Both the position numbers and the translations under genes were made by a program. A stretch of DNA of 43,384 nt from a virus (lineage: Duplodnaviria; Heunggongvirae; Uroviricota; Caudoviricetes), in the IMG/VR virus record IMGVR_UViG_2925908680_000005, positions 1 to 43,384 of that record; one strand, written 5' to 3'. The number at the start of each line of letters is the position of its first letter. Positions within the stretch are counted from its first letter, which is position 1. Shown piece after piece: positions 7,285 through 39,785 of this stretch. The notes beneath the pieces were generated by a model. It made no database searches. It worked only from the letters and a program-made list of their open reading frames with translations, and had not been told where the DNA came from.

Positions 7285-7380
7285 CGTTTAATGTGCATAA
7301 AGAACCCCCTTAGTTGATGAGCTCATCATACACAATAAACCATATGTGGATTGACTTTGATCGGATAACCATTAACGAAA

Positions 7381-7395
7381 TTACCTTTTGGGTGA
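7381..7395. promoter_or_regulatory. imperfect copy of the TTACC-N5-GGTAA palindrome (TTACC TTTTG GGTGA) about 30 bp upstream of the acyltransferase start
   Basis: read directly. Confidence 0.35.
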
Positions 7396-30184: not shown

Positions 30185-30221
30185 TTGACATTTAACGCAC
30201 AAATTATTACCTTTCAGGTAA
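30185..30221 (+). promoter_or_regulatory. candidate promoter (TTGACA at 30185-30190) with perfect operator palindrome TTACC TTTCA GGTAA at 30207-30221, upstream of the tRNA leader
   Basis: read directly; -10 element is weak or ambiguous. Confidence 0.4.
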
Positions 30222-32412: not shown

Positions 32413-33005
32413 TGATTACCATCCTGACGTTCTTTGAGTCGCTTCCTGGCTGCTGCTATGCGATCAGCAATTGTCACATTCACATTAACATCCAGACGTT
32501 CTTTGAACGCGTTGACATCAACATGCTTACCAATCAGCTCAAGGTTCTTCACCTTGTCAGGCCATTTAATTTTTTTGAGGATTGTCTCTATCGAATCCTC
32601 GTTCATGTTCATGATGGTCGATGACAGATCAAAGCCGCTAAGCGTAGTGCGCCAGATTTTCGGCCACTCGCGGATTGGCTTAAGGCTCCCATCGTCGTTG
32701 AGGATGTCGATCACGTCCATCTGGTCGATCTCCACCAGGCGCCTGAGAACGTAATCAGCACTGACGCGCATTCGTTTGTTGCGCTCCTCCATCAGCTCGG
32801 CAATCCGTTTTTGAATGCGTTCATCGCGCATCATGACACTGGCTTTAACTGCCGCTGTATTTGGGGAGAATCCTGCGTTAATCGCTGCCTGAGTCTGGTT
32901 TTCAGGCGTTTTGATGTATGACTGGCAATAAGCCTCCTGCATTGCTGTTAGTGGCTTAAATTGCGTTGATTTACGTTTATAGGTTTTAGGTTCAGCAGGC
33001 ATCAT
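32409..33005 (-). CDS. terminase small subunit
   Basis: ORF track extends to 33083, but the first 26 codons are low-complexity and overlap a repeat/operator, so the start was taken at the internal Met pair (MMPAEPKTYKRK). Confidence 0.6.
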   Translation of the reverse strand: MMPAEPKTYKRKSTQFKPLTAMQEAYCQSYIKTPENQTQAAINAGFSPNTAAVKASVMMRDERIQKRIAELMEERNKRMRVSADYVLRRLVEIDQMDVIDILNDDGSLKPIREWPKIWRTTLSGFDLSSTIMNMNEDSIETILKKIKWPDKVKNLELIGKHVDVNAFKERLDVNVNVTIADRIAAARKRLKERQDGNQ

Positions 33006-36473: not shown

Positions 36474-37274
36474 TTACTTGATAAATCCTGCCGCCTTTCC
36501 TCGCCTGTATTCCTCCATCAGCCACTGCGCCGGTGTTATTCCCCCCAAGGTGGCGGCGTTAGGCATACACCCGAAACTTCGCCCTGGTGGATGGTAAACG
36601 TCTCTCCCTGTGTCCGGAGGCGTACTCATGGGCTCTGGCTTTGCCTGTATGCTGATCACCGGATCGGGTATCTGCTGTCCGGAAGCCACCTTTTTCGCCC
36701 AATCATCGAGCAGCCTGCGCGCGTGTTTCTCAACCTCAATCTCGCTAAGCTGGCGCTGATACATTGCACGGCGGGTATCACATACGACCCAGTACATAAC
36801 CGGATGTCGCCACGGGAATCTTTCGGGACCACCAGGATATAAACTTTTTTCCTTGCTGTACCGGTGAAACTCCGCCATCACATCGTCAATGGTAACGCCA
36901 AGAACCATCTTGCTGTCTTTACACCACTTGATAAATTGCCCTGGCGACGGCCAGAACGGAGATTCACTGGCGCGGGCGTGGCGCATACCAGCAGAAACCT
37001 GTTCACGGGTTCGGATCCCCCCTTCGGCAAACGCAGCAATCCACTGCTGTTTTGCAGCAACTTCCTGCTCTGGCGTCTTCAGGTTGGTTACCACTGCCGC
37101 CGGAAACAGTTGTTTCAGCTGTTTGAAAAGGGCATCAACAAGCCTCTCTGCTGACATGTTCACCACATTGTCATTGTTGACGTATTGATGCTCATAACCT
37201 GACATGCGAGAAAGGGCTTCTCCGTCACGGTTTTGTATCGCGGTAAAAACGTTGTTCACAAGAAATCCTCCCAC
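36474..37274 (-). CDS. replication protein P-like (helicase loader)
   Basis: 266 aa; central region (FPAAVVTNL...QWIAAFAEGGIRTREQVSAGMRHARASESPFWPSPGQFIKWC) resembles lambda P as recalled from memory. Confidence 0.7.
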   Translation of the reverse strand: MGGFLVNNVFTAIQNRDGEALSRMSGYEHQYVNNDNVVNMSAERLVDALFKQLKQLFPAAVVTNLKTPEQEVAAKQQWIAAFAEGGIRTREQVSAGMRHARASESPFWPSPGQFIKWCKDSKMVLGVTIDDVMAEFHRYSKEKSLYPGGPERFPWRHPVMYWVVCDTRRAMYQRQLSEIEVEKHARRLLDDWAKKVASGQQIPDPVISIQAKPEPMSTPPDTGRDVYHPPGRSFGCMPNAATLGGITPAQWLMEEYRRGKAAGFIK

Positions 37275-38143
37275 GCTTCAGGGCTGTTCCAGTGCGGAAC
37301 GTTGTTATCAGGTAATGTTGATTGCTTCTGTCTGCTAATCTGCAGCCGCCTTGCCAGCTTCTGCTCCCACTGTGCCTGATGGTATGCCTTACCCTCAGCC
37401 ATCCAGTAAATTCTGAACTCTGCAAGTTCCTGTGCCGTTGGCAGACTGTCCAGGTAGATCCCCTGCAATGAGCTTTTCCGAAGAAAGTCATCTGATGGCT
37501 GCCATTGTTCATGCATGACAAATTTTCCTAATTGCCCTGGCCCACCAGGAGGAACAAAGTTATTCATCACGGCGTTGTTTGCGCCGGGGTCATGAGGCAC
37601 AGAATCCCCGGTTTTTGTCCTGCTCTCCCTCTCTTGGTTAAATGACTGGTTATATGACTGGTTCTGGATCCCGTTTTTGGGATCATTCAACATCCCGTTT
37701 TTGGGATCATTCAACATCCCGTTTTTGGGATCATTCAACATCCCGTTTTTGGGATCATTCAACATCCCGTTTTTGGGATCATTCAACATCCCGTTTTTGG
37801 GTATATTCCCGTTTTCGGTAACATTACCGTTTTCGGGTTCATTACCCCCTTCCCGGTTGCCTTTAATGTTCCCGTTTTTGGTTATATTAAGAGAGAAAAC
37901 CCGCACTCTTTTCGTCGCTCCCTTTCTCTCTCCGGTATCTGAAATAAGCCCCATTTTCATGAGCGATATAAGCCCGGCCTGCACGGTTTTTTTATTCAAG
38001 CAAGTGTCTTTAACGAGGCGTTCTATGCTGGGGTAGCAGAGGTTATATTCATCGGCTCTGTCAGCCATCGAGAGCAGTATGAGCTTTAATGATGAGCTGC
38101 CTGGATCTGTCTCCCAGGCCCAATCTGTTGCATGTCTGCTCAT
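37256..38143 (-). CDS. replication initiator O-like protein with in-gene iterons
   Basis: 295 aa; N-terminal winged-HTH-like domain; central GMLNDPKN x5 peptide repeat encoded by tandem 24-bp DNA repeats. Confidence 0.7.
   Translation of the reverse strand: MSRHATDWAWETDPGSSSLKLILLSMADRADEYNLCYPSIERLVKDTCLNKKTVQAGLISLMKMGLISDTGERKGATKRVRVFSLNITKNGNIKGNREGGNEPENGNVTENGNIPKNGMLNDPKNGMLNDPKNGMLNDPKNGMLNDPKNGMLNDPKNGIQNQSYNQSFNQERESRTKTGDSVPHDPGANNAVMNNFVPPGGPGQLGKFVMHEQWQPSDDFLRKSSLQGIYLDSLPTAQELAEFRIYWMAEGKAYHQAQWEQKLARRLQISRQKQSTLPDNNVPHWNSPEAWEDFL
37666..37881. repeat. iteron array (candidate origin of replication): five perfect tandem 24-bp repeats (37681-37800) flanked by degenerate 14-25-bp copies
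   Basis: unit GATCATTCAACATCCCGTTTTTGG repeated head-to-tail five times; degenerate CCGTTTT(C/T)GG-containing copies on both sides. Confidence 0.7.
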
Positions 38144-38158
38144 GATTAATCTCCGCTA

Positions 38159-38359
38159 TCAGCTTGAATGTTGTGGGGAGGAATTAATCATGATCTGCTT
38201 AATCTCTGCCCTGATGCGACGGTTTGATTCCATGGTGCACTCAACACAGTGTCCGTTGTAAACCCAGCGCTCACTGTCATGTCCGTGCTTACATGGTTTT
38301 CCGGTGTAGTAGCGTTTAAGTCCGCGCTTTGCGGCATCAATACGTGTAATGATTTCCAT
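38159..38359 (-). CDS. small zinc-ribbon protein in the cII position
   Basis: 66 aa from the MEIITR methionine; CKHGH...CVEC. Confidence 0.35.
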   Translation of the reverse strand: MEIITRIDAAKRGLKRYYTGKPCKHGHDSERWVYNGHCVECTMESNRRIRAEIKQIMINSSPQHSS

Positions 38360-38420
38360 GGTAAGCCCTGTTATTAGTATTGGGATTACGGTTATTTTGT
38401 GCTGACACAAAAAAAAGATC

Positions 38421-38454
38421 AACCAAATTTGGTTTTTTATTACCTTTAAGGTGC
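38421..38454 (-). promoter_or_regulatory. 14-bp perfect palindrome AACCAAATTTGGTT with adjacent T-run (tR1-like position) plus imperfect operator copy TTACC TTTAA GGTGC (38440-38454)
   Basis: read directly between cro-like and cII-position genes. Confidence 0.35.
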
Positions 38455-38509
38455 GAATAGATATGAAAAGACCGCCGGATGGCGGCCTACAGAGGGTTGT
38501 GGCTGGATA

Positions 38510-38740
38510 TCATGAGTAGAAGAAGTATGCCAGTTCTGCTTTTGAGCGCAGCCATTGTCTTGTTTTACAGGCTTTAAAAAGCCCATTCATCAATACCTTA
38601 CCTGGCATTTTGCGCTTACCTGTTAAGTGAGTCTGGATATAGTGACTCGTCGTTCCGGCTTCCTGTGCGAAGGCTTCACGCTCATCCGGAGTAAGTGCAA
38701 GCCAGTGCTTTTTGAAATCGAAATGTCCGTTATCGCTCAT
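38510..38740 (-). CDS. Cro-like small DNA-binding regulator
   Basis: 76 aa, divergent from repressor gene. Confidence 0.5.
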   Translation of the reverse strand: MSDNGHFDFKKHWLALTPDEREAFAQEAGTTSHYIQTHLTGKRKMPGKVLMNGLFKACKTRQWLRSKAELAYFFYS

Positions 38741-38776
38741 AGCTATTGCCTGATATTTATTTCAGATAATAAATAT

Positions 38777-38839
38777 TCACCCATAAGGTAACAAAAATCA
38801 AGGATAGTTACCTATGGGGTGCATTTACCTGTTGGGTAA
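38777..38839. promoter_or_regulatory. tripartite operator region between cro-like and repressor genes: TCACC CATAA GGTAA (38777-38791), TTACC TATGG GGTGC (38808-38822), TTACC TGTTG GGTAA (38825-38839)
   Basis: read directly; one perfect and two one-or-two-mismatch copies in 63 bp. Confidence 0.6.
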
Positions 38840-38894
38840 TATTGCTTTAAATTGAATCATCTACTGATTCATATATGAGGCGATTTTCCAGAAA

Positions 38895-39479
38895 ATGAAA
38901 AGTATCCAGGACGTCCGCAGGCAAAATCTCAACGACTTGATCGACCGTGAATTCAATGGTGTTCAGACGCGGATGGCAGAAAAACTTGGAACTCAGGCAA
39001 ATCTGGTAAACCGCTGGGCTCTTGGCAAGAAGGTTATCGGCGACCAGGTTGCGCGAAAAATTGAAGCTGCCGCCAATAAACCCCGTAACTGGCTTGATAT
39101 CGATCGCTCGCTTTCTCAAGAAGGTTTTCAGCCTGTCGGACCAAGCGACATTGGTCAGCTGGCGGCTCACAACCTGGAACGCTGGATGAGCGAAAGCCGA
39201 GACCTTTCAACGCAGGGAAAACTTCACCGCGCATCCGGCGTCGCCCAGGTGACAATCAGCCGCCTGTTAAACAATGAGGTCAGCGTTTCCATTTCCACCC
39301 TGGAGAATGTTGCATCCGCATTCGGGCGTCACGGCTATGAATTACTGATTCACCCGCACGACCCTGCGACTATCAACTATGATCGCTCGCGCTACGCATT
39401 GTTACCTGAAACAGAGAAGGCAAAGATCGAAAGTTACATTGAATTTGTCATCAACCAGAACGAAAAAAGCAAACAATAA
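38895..39479 (+). CDS. immunity repressor-like protein with two HTH domains and no recognisable LexA-type autocleavage domain
   Basis: 194 aa; two XRE-type HTH-like segments; no Ala-Gly/Ser-Lys peptidase motif seen. Confidence 0.6.
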   Translation: MKSIQDVRRQNLNDLIDREFNGVQTRMAEKLGTQANLVNRWALGKKVIGDQVARKIEAAANKPRNWLDIDRSLSQEGFQPVGPSDIGQLAAHNLERWMSESRDLSTQGKLHRASGVAQVTISRLLNNEVSVSISTLENVASAFGRHGYELLIHPHDPATINYDRSRYALLPETEKAKIESYIEFVINQNEKSKQ

Positions 39480-39500
39480 AACTATAGTTTTCAGAAAGTA

Positions 39501-39525
39501 AGCCGCCTCATGGCGGCTTTTTTAT
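39501..39525 (+). terminator. intrinsic terminator after repressor gene
   Basis: AGCCGCC-TCAT-GGCGGCT stem followed by TTTTTTA. Confidence 0.75.
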
Positions 39526-39536
39526 TGCCCATGAAA

Positions 39537-39613
39537 TTACCTTACGGGTAATTTTTTTAACTCATATCTATTGACAACAAACCAAATACGCATAATTATT
39601 ACCTCAACGGTAA
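39537..39613 (+). promoter_or_regulatory. PL-like early promoter (TTGACA 39571-39576, 16-bp spacer, ATAATT 39593-39598) bracketed by two perfect operator palindromes (39537-39551 and 39599-39613)
   Basis: read directly. Confidence 0.6.
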
Positions 39614-39632
39614 CAAGCCGAGGTAACAAGTT

Positions 39633-39785
39633 ATGCAGTGGAAAATCATCAACGGTTGGTACTGCGTTACTGCATGCGGATTCATGAGCTGGAAGTTCCG
39701 CACATTACAGGAAGGCATTAAGTGGGCTTTCGTCAGCAAAGAAGCTCGCGATGTGGCCAACGATAACGAGATATGGGAGGGCTGA
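39633..39785 (+). CDS. small Trp/Cys-rich protein, first gene of the rightward early operon (below the ORF-track size cutoff)
   Basis: 50-codon ORF MQWKIINGWYCVTACGFMSWKFRTLQEGIKWAFVSKEARDVANDNEIWEG found by hand translation. Confidence 0.35.
   Translation: MQWKIINGWYCVTACGFMSWKFRTLQEGIKWAFVSKEARDVANDNEIWEG

Follow-up and report, generated by a model that had tools for sequence, protein, structure and literature searches.

The phiV10-type Rep/Ant immunity switch of a Uetakevirus prophage and a conserved palindrome that may lie before a second promoter

The switch and its closest relatives

The Rep-Ant-LexA lytic switch of the Salmonella podophage SPC32H has reportedly been characterised both genetically and structurally, in work attributed to Kim & Ryu 2013 and Kim et al. 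2016 and in the PDB entries 5D50 and 5D4Z. We compare with it the immunity region of a 43,384-nucleotide stretch of viral DNA (Caudoviricetes; IMG/VR record IMGVR_UViG_2925908680_000005, positions 1 to 43,384), hereafter the window, and above all two of its elements: a three-site operator between divergent regulatory genes and a 14-bp palindrome between the cro-like and cII-position genes. An earlier note on this DNA had described the operator as part of a lambda-like switch, and the palindrome as a possible terminator in the position of lambda tR1. In SPC32H, according to a summary of Kim et al. 2016 in PMC9638917, the repressor Rep is a tetramer on palindromic sites, with its DNA-binding dimers formed across dimers, and is dismantled by a tetrameric antirepressor, Ant. 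Closer to the window, overexpression of the repressor ORF21 of phage ZX5 lowered the transcription of the lysis genes (endolysin and holin) by 99.97-99.99% (PMC9782041). This was the only study returned by a literature search for operator or promoter mapping in Uetakeviruses, a search that did not cover the primary papers on the epsilon15 genome and on SPC32H.

By homology the window is a phiV10-like Uetakevirus prophage, and the region under study is its immunity region, that is, the region of lysis/lysogeny control. Across 1.6 kb around the switch the window is 98% identical to phiV10 (DQ126339), 97-98% identical to the other E. coli Uetakeviruses ZX5, TL-2011b and phiv142-3, and 76-78% identical to the Enterobacter phages Tyrion and BUCT554. 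Of 5426 complete E. coli genomes, 540 contain a 551-bp segment over the switch at an identity of at least 95%, and the host prophage is a common one that has been sequenced before. The immunity regions of SPC32H, epsilon15, SPN1S and phiV10 resemble that of the window in their Rep and Ant homologues, their LexA box and their gene order, and the switch belongs to the already known SPC32H/epsilon15/phiV10 Rep-Ant-LexA type. The gene order is the mirror image of that of lambda, and the features that define the switch are the following (aa, amino acids; ORF, open reading frame):

38159-38359, minus strand: cII-position gene, 66 aa (ORF)
38510-38740, minus strand: cro-position gene, 76 aa (ORF)
38741-38894: intergenic gap of 154 bp between the cro-position ORF and rep
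38895-39479, plus strand: rep, the repressor gene, 194 aa (ORF), with a terminator behind it
11065-11322, plus strand: ant, the antirepressor gene, 85 aa (PDB 5d50_E 'Anti-repressor protein', E = 1.4e-46)
from 11026: LexA box TACTGTATAAATATACAGT before ant, with the core CTGTATAAATATACAG at 11028-11043 (CTGT-N8-ACAG)

The Rep of the window is 99.5-100% identical to phiV10 p40 and ZX5 ORF21 (99.5% for the ZX5 repressor). Searched against Pfam at E up to 0.1, it matches only helix-turn-helix (HTH) families, namely HTH_3 and HTH_26, and no S24 peptidase domain was found at that threshold. It aligns over residues 1-190 with PDB 5d50_A 'Repressor' (E = 3.5e-42, about 43% identity), and its C-terminal half aligns with the tetramerisation and Ant-binding domain formed by Rep residues 92-198 (5d4z, E = 3.6e-20); six Rep types can be aligned with 66 invariant columns. 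Judged by this full-length homology, Rep is a repressor of the SPC32H type with two HTH domains, and, judged by its domain content, it is not a lambda-type CI. As befits such a repressor, a LexA box lies 20 bp upstream of what is, again by homology, its cognate small Ant. The Ant of the window is about 87% identical to SPC32H Ant over 83 residues, against about 43% for Rep, whose C-terminal half has diverged from that of SPC32H; this asymmetry is notable, Ant being the binder of the Rep C-terminal domain. The want of an S24 domain and the Ant homologue behind a LexA box together point to induction through a LexA-controlled antirepressor, and not through cleavage of the repressor. The switch would then be lambda-like in looks only: the layout proposed by the earlier note stands, while the mechanism that the term implies does not, the repressor of lambda possessing the autocleavage domain that is missing here and the Rep of the window being homologous to the Ant-inactivated Rep of SPC32H.

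Operators and promoters in the 154-bp gap

Three 15-bp sites of the type TTACC-N5-GGTAA (TTACCNNNNNGGTAA) lie in the gap between the divergent cro-like and repressor genes, as the earlier note had recognised, and they stand at -118/-116, -87/-85 and -70/-68 from the rep ATG in 12 of the 12 loci that we compared. These loci are those of the window, Tyrion, BUCT554, BUCT711, epsilon15 and SPN1S and of six prophages (Superficieibacter, Erwinia dacicola, Klebsiella, two Citrobacter species and Scandinavium). They span at least four repressor types, with an identity to the Rep of the window down to 41-45%, and most of them amount to only about five sequence groups; a scan of IMG/VR with Rep yielded only loci 99-100% identical and added no diversity. 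Across the 12 loci the arms of the sites are conserved and the N5 cores are variable, and fixed arms around variable cores at constant positions are the signature of protein-binding sites. The sites and the candidate promoters among which they lie are:

38777-38791: OR1, TCACCCATAAGGTAA, one mismatch, inside the PR spacer
38808-38822: OR2, TTACCTATGGGGTGC, two mismatches, upstream of both -35 hexamers, by 6 bp for PR and by 1 bp for PRM
38825-38839: OR3, TTACCTGTTGGGTAA, no mismatch, over the -35 and the spacer of the PRM candidate
38801-38766, minus strand: candidate promoter PR, -35 TTGATT (38801-38796), -10 AATATT (38777-38772)
38824-38853, plus strand: candidate promoter PRM, -35 TTTACC (38824-38829), -10 TTAAAT/TAAATT (38847-38853)

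The centre of OR2 is 31 bp from that of OR1 and 17 bp from that of OR3. With up to two mismatches allowed, TTACC-N5-GGTAA occurs 43 times in the window against 11.95 +/- 3.2 times in shuffled sequences, and about 0.04 sites per 154 bp would be predicted where three are seen in the gap (Poisson p ~1e-5). The description of the three sites as palindromes holds strictly for only one of them, OR3, which is both the perfect consensus operator and the site lying over PRM.

The -35 hexamer of the PR candidate is kept in 12/12 loci within a conserved context (AAAAATCAA; consensus and position weight matrix (PWM) scans), and an alternative PR pair is formed by TTGTTA (38794-38789) and TATTAT (38771-38766). 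The PRM candidate is the best plus-strand pair of the gap in the PWM scan, and a T(T/C)(T/A)AATT block is present there in all 12 loci. The analogy with lambda OR is therefore sound as a matter of layout, in that divergent repressor and cro-position genes flank a tripartite operator that overlaps both promoter candidates, with one site for each promoter and one between; the centre of OR2 lies about 44 bp upstream of the probable PRM start, near the -42 of lambda. What sets the window apart from lambda is the spacing of its 15-bp operators, 31 and 17 bp, and a consensus site placed over PRM and not over PR. The same three-site layout is present in epsilon15, whose record annotates seven 'repressor' sites elsewhere in the genome, all matching TTACC-N5-GGTAA at those positions, and leaves its three OR sites unannotated; between the phiV10 type and the epsilon15-type relatives the weak arm of OR1 changes sides.

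An inverted repeat, GATATTTATT-N6-AATAAATATT, covers the PR -10 and start at 38752-38777 and is conserved in the loci of phiV10 and Tyrion type. We rejected it as a Cro site: the loci of epsilon15 type lack it, yet have a conserved cro-position protein.

Operators of the Rep type are scattered over the genome, nine of those in the whole window being perfect, and this too distinguishes the window from lambda, as does the fact that no N, nut or Q is annotated: neither the phiV10 nor the epsilon15 record contains an N-like or Q-like antiterminator product. Intergenic Rep-type operators were observed at 7381, 10974, 11354, 30207, 33005/33023, 36360/36422, 38440 and 39537/39599. Some of them form pairs, with a spacing of 62 bp at PL and behind the P gene and of 18 bp ahead of the small terminase gene, and the orthologous pairs of epsilon15, part of which its record marks as 'repressor' sites, have equal spacings. 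A strong promoter-like pair, TTGACA-17-TACCTT, was also noted at 30185-30221 on the plus strand; its -10 falls within a perfect Rep operator. The pair faces a gene of the p03 family, away from the p06 and portal genes downstream on the minus strand, and epsilon15 has the same TTGACA, separated from the operator by the same 16 nt.

The palindrome and its module

The palindrome AACCAAATTTGGTT is found exactly at 38421-38434, between the cro-like and cII-position genes, as had been reported. Perfect 14-bp palindromes are not rare in themselves (six were counted in the window, and 2.5 +/- 1.6 in shuffled sequences), and the significance of this one comes from its conservation in 12/12 loci and from its membership in a family of motifs. 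Read along the minus strand, it is surrounded by the following elements:

38460-38488, minus strand: intrinsic terminator after the cro-like gene (hairpin 38469-38488; 8-bp stem with six GC pairs, 4-nt loop, tail UUUUCAUAUC)
38440-38454: weak Rep-operator-like site TTACCTTTAAGGTGC, with the arms of OR2, 5 bp from the palindrome
38422-38394, minus strand: candidate promoter PR2, -35 TTGATC (38422-38417), 17 nt, -10 CAAAAT (38399-38394)

The sequence AACCNNATNTGG occurs at four distinct sites in the window against 0.37 expected, a count that none of 100 shuffles reached, and together with three near-exact copies (30155, 36380 and 39580) a family of seven is obtained, the others lying at 7338, 10934, 11313 and 38421. 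In all seven the better AACC half is on the plus strand. Every copy stands at a centre-to-centre distance of 19.5, 40.5-43.5 or 52.5 bp from a Rep operator, and in epsilon15, Tyrion and BUCT711 the orthologous copies keep these distances despite the differing sequence in between. The palindrome is thus one copy of a dispersed motif, AACC-N6-GGWT, and looks like a regulatory site that acts at the level of DNA.

Around the palindrome the 12 loci share a minus-strand module, GGTAAT-N4-WWCC-N6-GGTTGAT(C/A)-T-run-(8-11 variable nt)-(C/A/G)AAAAT, which starts with a degenerate half-site and N5 before GGTAAT. The first part of the module is the weak Rep-operator-like site, whose TTACC arm is invariant in 12/12 loci and whose distal arm is degenerate. 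Its last part is the PR2 candidate, which faces the gp40-like gene and the replication genes and would place the centre of the palindrome at about -41. In the PWM scan no sigma70-like candidate outscores the PR2 pair in 11 of the 12 loci. The position of the pair never changes, its spacer is 15-17 nt long and variable in sequence (SPN1S being scored at 15), and its scores are 7.1-10.4, where the 90th percentile of the background is 8.7. Its -35 with the T-run resembles the conserved context of the PR -35, TTGATTTTT, and its -10 is followed by a TACC-type half-site. We also observed a Dam site, GATC (38417-38420), within the PR2 -35, which is kept in 11/12 loci (Erwinia dacicola has TTGATA); a methylation-sensitive activity of PR2 is conceivable.

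The same layout, namely motif, -35, 17 nt, an A/T-rich -10-like hexamer and TACC, recurs elsewhere in the window. At the BRO promoter (11326), TTGAAA-17-TATATT starts from the last base of the motif, has the best score of the PWM scan (13.7) and has a -10 that runs directly into a TACC operator; the modules on the side of ant (10934) and of oac (7338) are laid out like that of BRO, with poorer -35 hexamers. An activator near -41.5 over a weak -35 is found in class II CRP/FNR promoters and with lambda CI at OR2 on PRM, and the palindrome, centred about 41 bp upstream of the presumed PR2 start, would lie in the same register, as would the motif copies of the BRO, ant-side and oac-side modules. 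Unlike class II activator sites, the motif lies within the spacer at PL and at the promoter after the P gene, a position in which it would be expected to repress.

As to the protein that would bind the motif, Rep is possible, since the arms of the motif share the ACC/GGT core with those of the operators; a protein other than Rep is suggested by the conserved motif centre and by the spacing of N6. The obvious candidate is then the HTH protein in the cro position, which we infer to be the best one because the segment with which it would read DNA hardly varies from one repressor type to another: in six cro-position sequences AGTTSHYIQ.HLT (residues 28-40) is constant save for residue 37. This protein, of the epsilon15 gp39/phiV10 p41 family (76 aa), matches PHROG 35 'transcriptional repressor' (E = 5.6e-13); no Pfam family was found for it, and a search with the gp39 family returned 'hypothetical protein' names only. 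Its AlphaFold2 model (mean predicted local distance difference test, 86.7) is all-alpha, with five helices arranged as an XRE-type HTH, and the nearest folds are the YdaS N-terminal domain and the DNA-binding domains of 434 and P22 c2 (template modelling score about 0.6, Foldseek E >0.7). The label 'cro-like' used by the earlier note is thus a reasonable one, by position and size and by predicted fold. Between the phiV10 type and epsilon15 gp39 the protein is 76% identical, while Rep there is 43% identical. In lambdoid phages the DNA-binding domain of the repressor, Cro and the operators co-vary with the immunity type; in the family of the window, by contrast, the Rep DNA-binding domain and the cro-position protein are conserved across repressor types, and the operators are the same in all of them.

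It may be, and we put this forward tentatively and with the weight still on the other side, that the motif is the site of a second regulator common to all Uetakeviruses, best represented by the cro-position HTH protein. Near -41 this regulator would activate Rep-guarded promoters (PR2 and the ant and BRO promoters) and within the spacer it would repress PL and the promoter after P, which would make 'cro' a dual activator and repressor.

The palindrome does not behave as an intrinsic terminator. As RNA of the minus strand it forms a 5-bp stem with two GC pairs (-4.0 kcal/mol, z = -0.85), a stability equalled by 40 of 200 shuffles, and its equivalents in epsilon15 (-3.1), Tyrion (-3.3) and BUCT711 (-2.2 kcal/mol) fold no better than shuffles (z -0.5 or weaker). 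The symmetry is broken in the relatives without compensation (AACCATATATGGAT, AACCGTATTTGGAT, AACCATATTCGGAT), and the pairing is lost in Tyrion, BUCT554 and BUCT711, which have AACC...GGAT. The T-run mentioned in the earlier note is real on the plus strand, where T6 directly adjoins the palindrome; on the transcribed minus strand GAUC precedes U8. The terminator scan did not report the palindrome, though it reported the GC hairpin 35 bp upstream. This hairpin (38469-38488), which begins 21 nt past the cro-like stop codon and which the phiV10 record annotates as a rho-independent terminator, folds at -14.4 kcal/mol (z = -4.63, equalled by 0 of 200 shuffles) and has, apart from a short U-tract, the make-up of an intrinsic terminator, so that the role proposed for the palindrome would fall to the hairpin instead.

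Three other readings were tried and rejected. A boxB/nut-like RNA is contradicted by the weak and unconserved hairpin and by the absence of an annotated N-like gene; sites for IHF (WATCAANNNNTTR), Fis, CRP and FNR and a DnaA box do not fit the palindrome, as far as a check by eye goes; and a short plus-strand ORF from 38464 is conserved between types neither in length nor in sequence.

Proposed model and competing readings

The model that we favour combines a phiV10-type Rep/Ant immunity switch with a palindrome that serves as a DNA site before a second promoter, and, taken as a whole, we consider it probable on balance. Rep, which would not cleave itself, would recognise the 15-bp TTACC-N5-GGTAA operators. 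Its binding to OR1, inside the PR spacer, would block the lytic promoter, and its binding to OR3, over the PRM -35, would result in negative autoregulation, with OR2 placed between both promoters and near both -35 hexamers. Induction would be achieved by the small Ant, encoded 27 kb away behind its LexA box, which would remove Rep from the DNA. The transcripts from PR would then largely stop at the GC hairpin 38469-38488, and transcription would begin again at the weak PR2 and enter the gp40-like gene and the replication genes of O/P type, the palindrome acting as a DNA site centred about 41 bp upstream of the PR2 start and the weak Rep operator (38440-38454) lying one step upstream of the palindrome. 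Such a restart fits the terminators found after short operons and the lack of an annotated antiterminator. The functions given here to OR1-OR3, the firing of PR2 and the binding of a protein to the motif are those that we infer from these arrangements.

Several points weigh against this model. The consensus site is OR3 and not OR1, and the order of occupancy may therefore differ from that in lambda. The hexamers of PR2 are weak, agreeing with the consensus at 8 of 12 positions and scoring near the background 90th percentile, and the consensus promoter scan did not report the pair. The offsets of the motif vary, from about -41 in four modules to about -58 in one and to a place in the spacer (about -19.5) at PL and at the post-P promoter, so that a single simple role is not established. 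The plus strand of the palindrome module is itself PL-like, with motif, -10-like hexamer and TACC. Behind gp39, epsilon15-type relatives retain the hairpin but have no U-tract; read-through from PR may thus suffice there, and these phages could strictly do without a second promoter. Lastly, no start-site mapping, footprint or termination assay for the phage was found in the literature that we reached.

Among the competing readings, the one that survives best takes the palindrome for an auxiliary, low-affinity Rep site, a second foothold for the tetramer beside a lone operator (by binding at two points or by a short loop), with no protein of its own and no activation of a promoter. The arms xAACC/GGTTx retain the ACC/GGT core of the operator, one such arm occurs at N5 spacing at 33005 (TAACCACCGTGGTAA), the isolated operators all have a motif partner at a fixed distance, whereas no motif accompanies the pairs of operators in OR and ahead of the terminase gene; the tetramer with dimers formed across dimers, as given for SPC32H Rep in PMC9638917, would suit such a bridge. 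The spacing is nevertheless N6 and not N5, the conserved centre of the motif (A-n-A-T-w-w) indicates, beside the freely varying centres of the operators, a different mode of recognition, and two full operators are already present at PL and at the post-P promoter. We regard this reading as rather unlikely.

The module could also be a plus-strand promoter of the PRE kind, running antisense through the cro-like gene to rep, with an activator at the palindrome. Its position and orientation are those of lambda PRE, its plus strand repeats the PL core (72% over 32 nt in the window, 23 of 24 nt in Tyrion), and the hexamer before TACC is wwTwAT in most of the 12 loci. A -35 is, however, absent in every locus (AAAAAG/AAGATC), the -10-like hexamer of the window and of epsilon15, TTTTAT, has no A at position 2, the plus-strand pairs at the module score at most 6.2 in the PWM scan, in which the minus-strand pair is on top, and a Rep site at +1 would have the promoter shut by the very protein that it should supply. 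We judge this plus-strand reading less likely than PR2 and, by itself, improbable.

More improbable still is a palindrome without function, conserved as part of a young segment or as a hitch-hiker with its neighbours. Perfect 14-bp palindromes are not rare, as said above, and the few sequence groups among the 12 loci would be in keeping with it, but the flanks diverge while CC-N6-GGTTGAT and GGTAAT stay fixed even at 41-45% Rep identity, the four exact and three near-exact sites far exceed expectation, and the distances to the operators are kept in four genomes. The tR1-like terminator of the earlier note, for which the position between two genes, the T6 on the plus strand and the U8 4 nt on along the minus strand can be cited, is the least credible reading of all, given the weak, unconserved stem, the GAUC gap, the silence of the terminator scan and the nearby GC hairpin. 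Lambda tR1 is moreover Rho-dependent and overridden by N at nutR, so that a hairpin with a T-run would not be its analogue anyway; the likeness is one of position only, the terminating element at this place in the window being the intrinsic GC hairpin.

The genes around the switch agree with the general plan. Lambda and the window share the succession of repressor gene, terminator and PL/OL, in the same orientation, and the O/P-type genes downstream of PR. The remaining features of this neighbourhood are:

36474-37274, minus strand: P-family replication protein (gene order)
37256-38143, minus strand: DnaT/O-like protein, with internal iterons (gene order)
39500-39519, plus strand: rep terminator
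39537-39551 and 39599-39613: operators of the PL/OL region, 62 bp apart
TTGACA (39571)-17-AATTAT (39594), plus strand: PL, with a degenerate motif copy (39580-39593) filling the spacer

Past the rep terminator, the PL-like promoter with its operators is followed on the plus strand by a YqaJ-type exonuclease gene and a RecT gene. A search of Rfam over 38100-39700 gave nothing at or near the gathering score, the weak matches all falling on the rep terminator. The cII-position protein, of the epsilon15 gp40/phiV10 p42 family (66 aa), belongs to PHROG 1081, which has no assigned function (E = 7.7e-43). No CII family was found for it in Pfam at E up to 0.1, nor was a related solved structure found, and by its family it is not a homologue of CII; its conserved residues C23, H25, H27, C38 and C41 suggest a zinc-binding fold.

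Iteron arrays lie inside the DnaT/O-like gene at 37635-37846: a 24-bp unit that includes a GATC is repeated in 5.6 perfect copies (37668-37801), and a degenerate 18-bp array comes next. The arrays form a lambda-like origin within the initiator gene and encode a repeated NDPKNGML peptide. The phiV10-type phages have an additional antirepressor gene of the BRO-N type (phiV10 p23 family), which in the window (11482-13189) is apparently shortened by an insertion sequence of the IS3 family, with an HTH_Tnp_1 ORF (12779-13189, minus strand) and an rve integrase-core ORF (11916-12821, minus strand); this insertion explains in part why the window is longer than phiV10 (43.4 against 39.1 kb).

In conclusion, the mechanism of the repressor and antirepressor has been solved structurally in a close relative, and our comparison changes little in that respect. 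For annotation, it indicates that records of the phiV10 type omit three OR and two OL operators that can be placed exactly, and that 'lambda-like' should not be read here as RecA-cleavable, induction probably passing through the LexA-controlled Ant. A modest lead would remain in the dispersed motif AACC-N6-GGWT and in the candidate promoter PR2. If a dual 'cro' does act at the motif, it would lock in the lytic commitment by turning on the antirepressors and replication. More generally, the motif and PR2 suggest that these podophages may run many short, Rep-guarded operons rather than an antitermination cascade.

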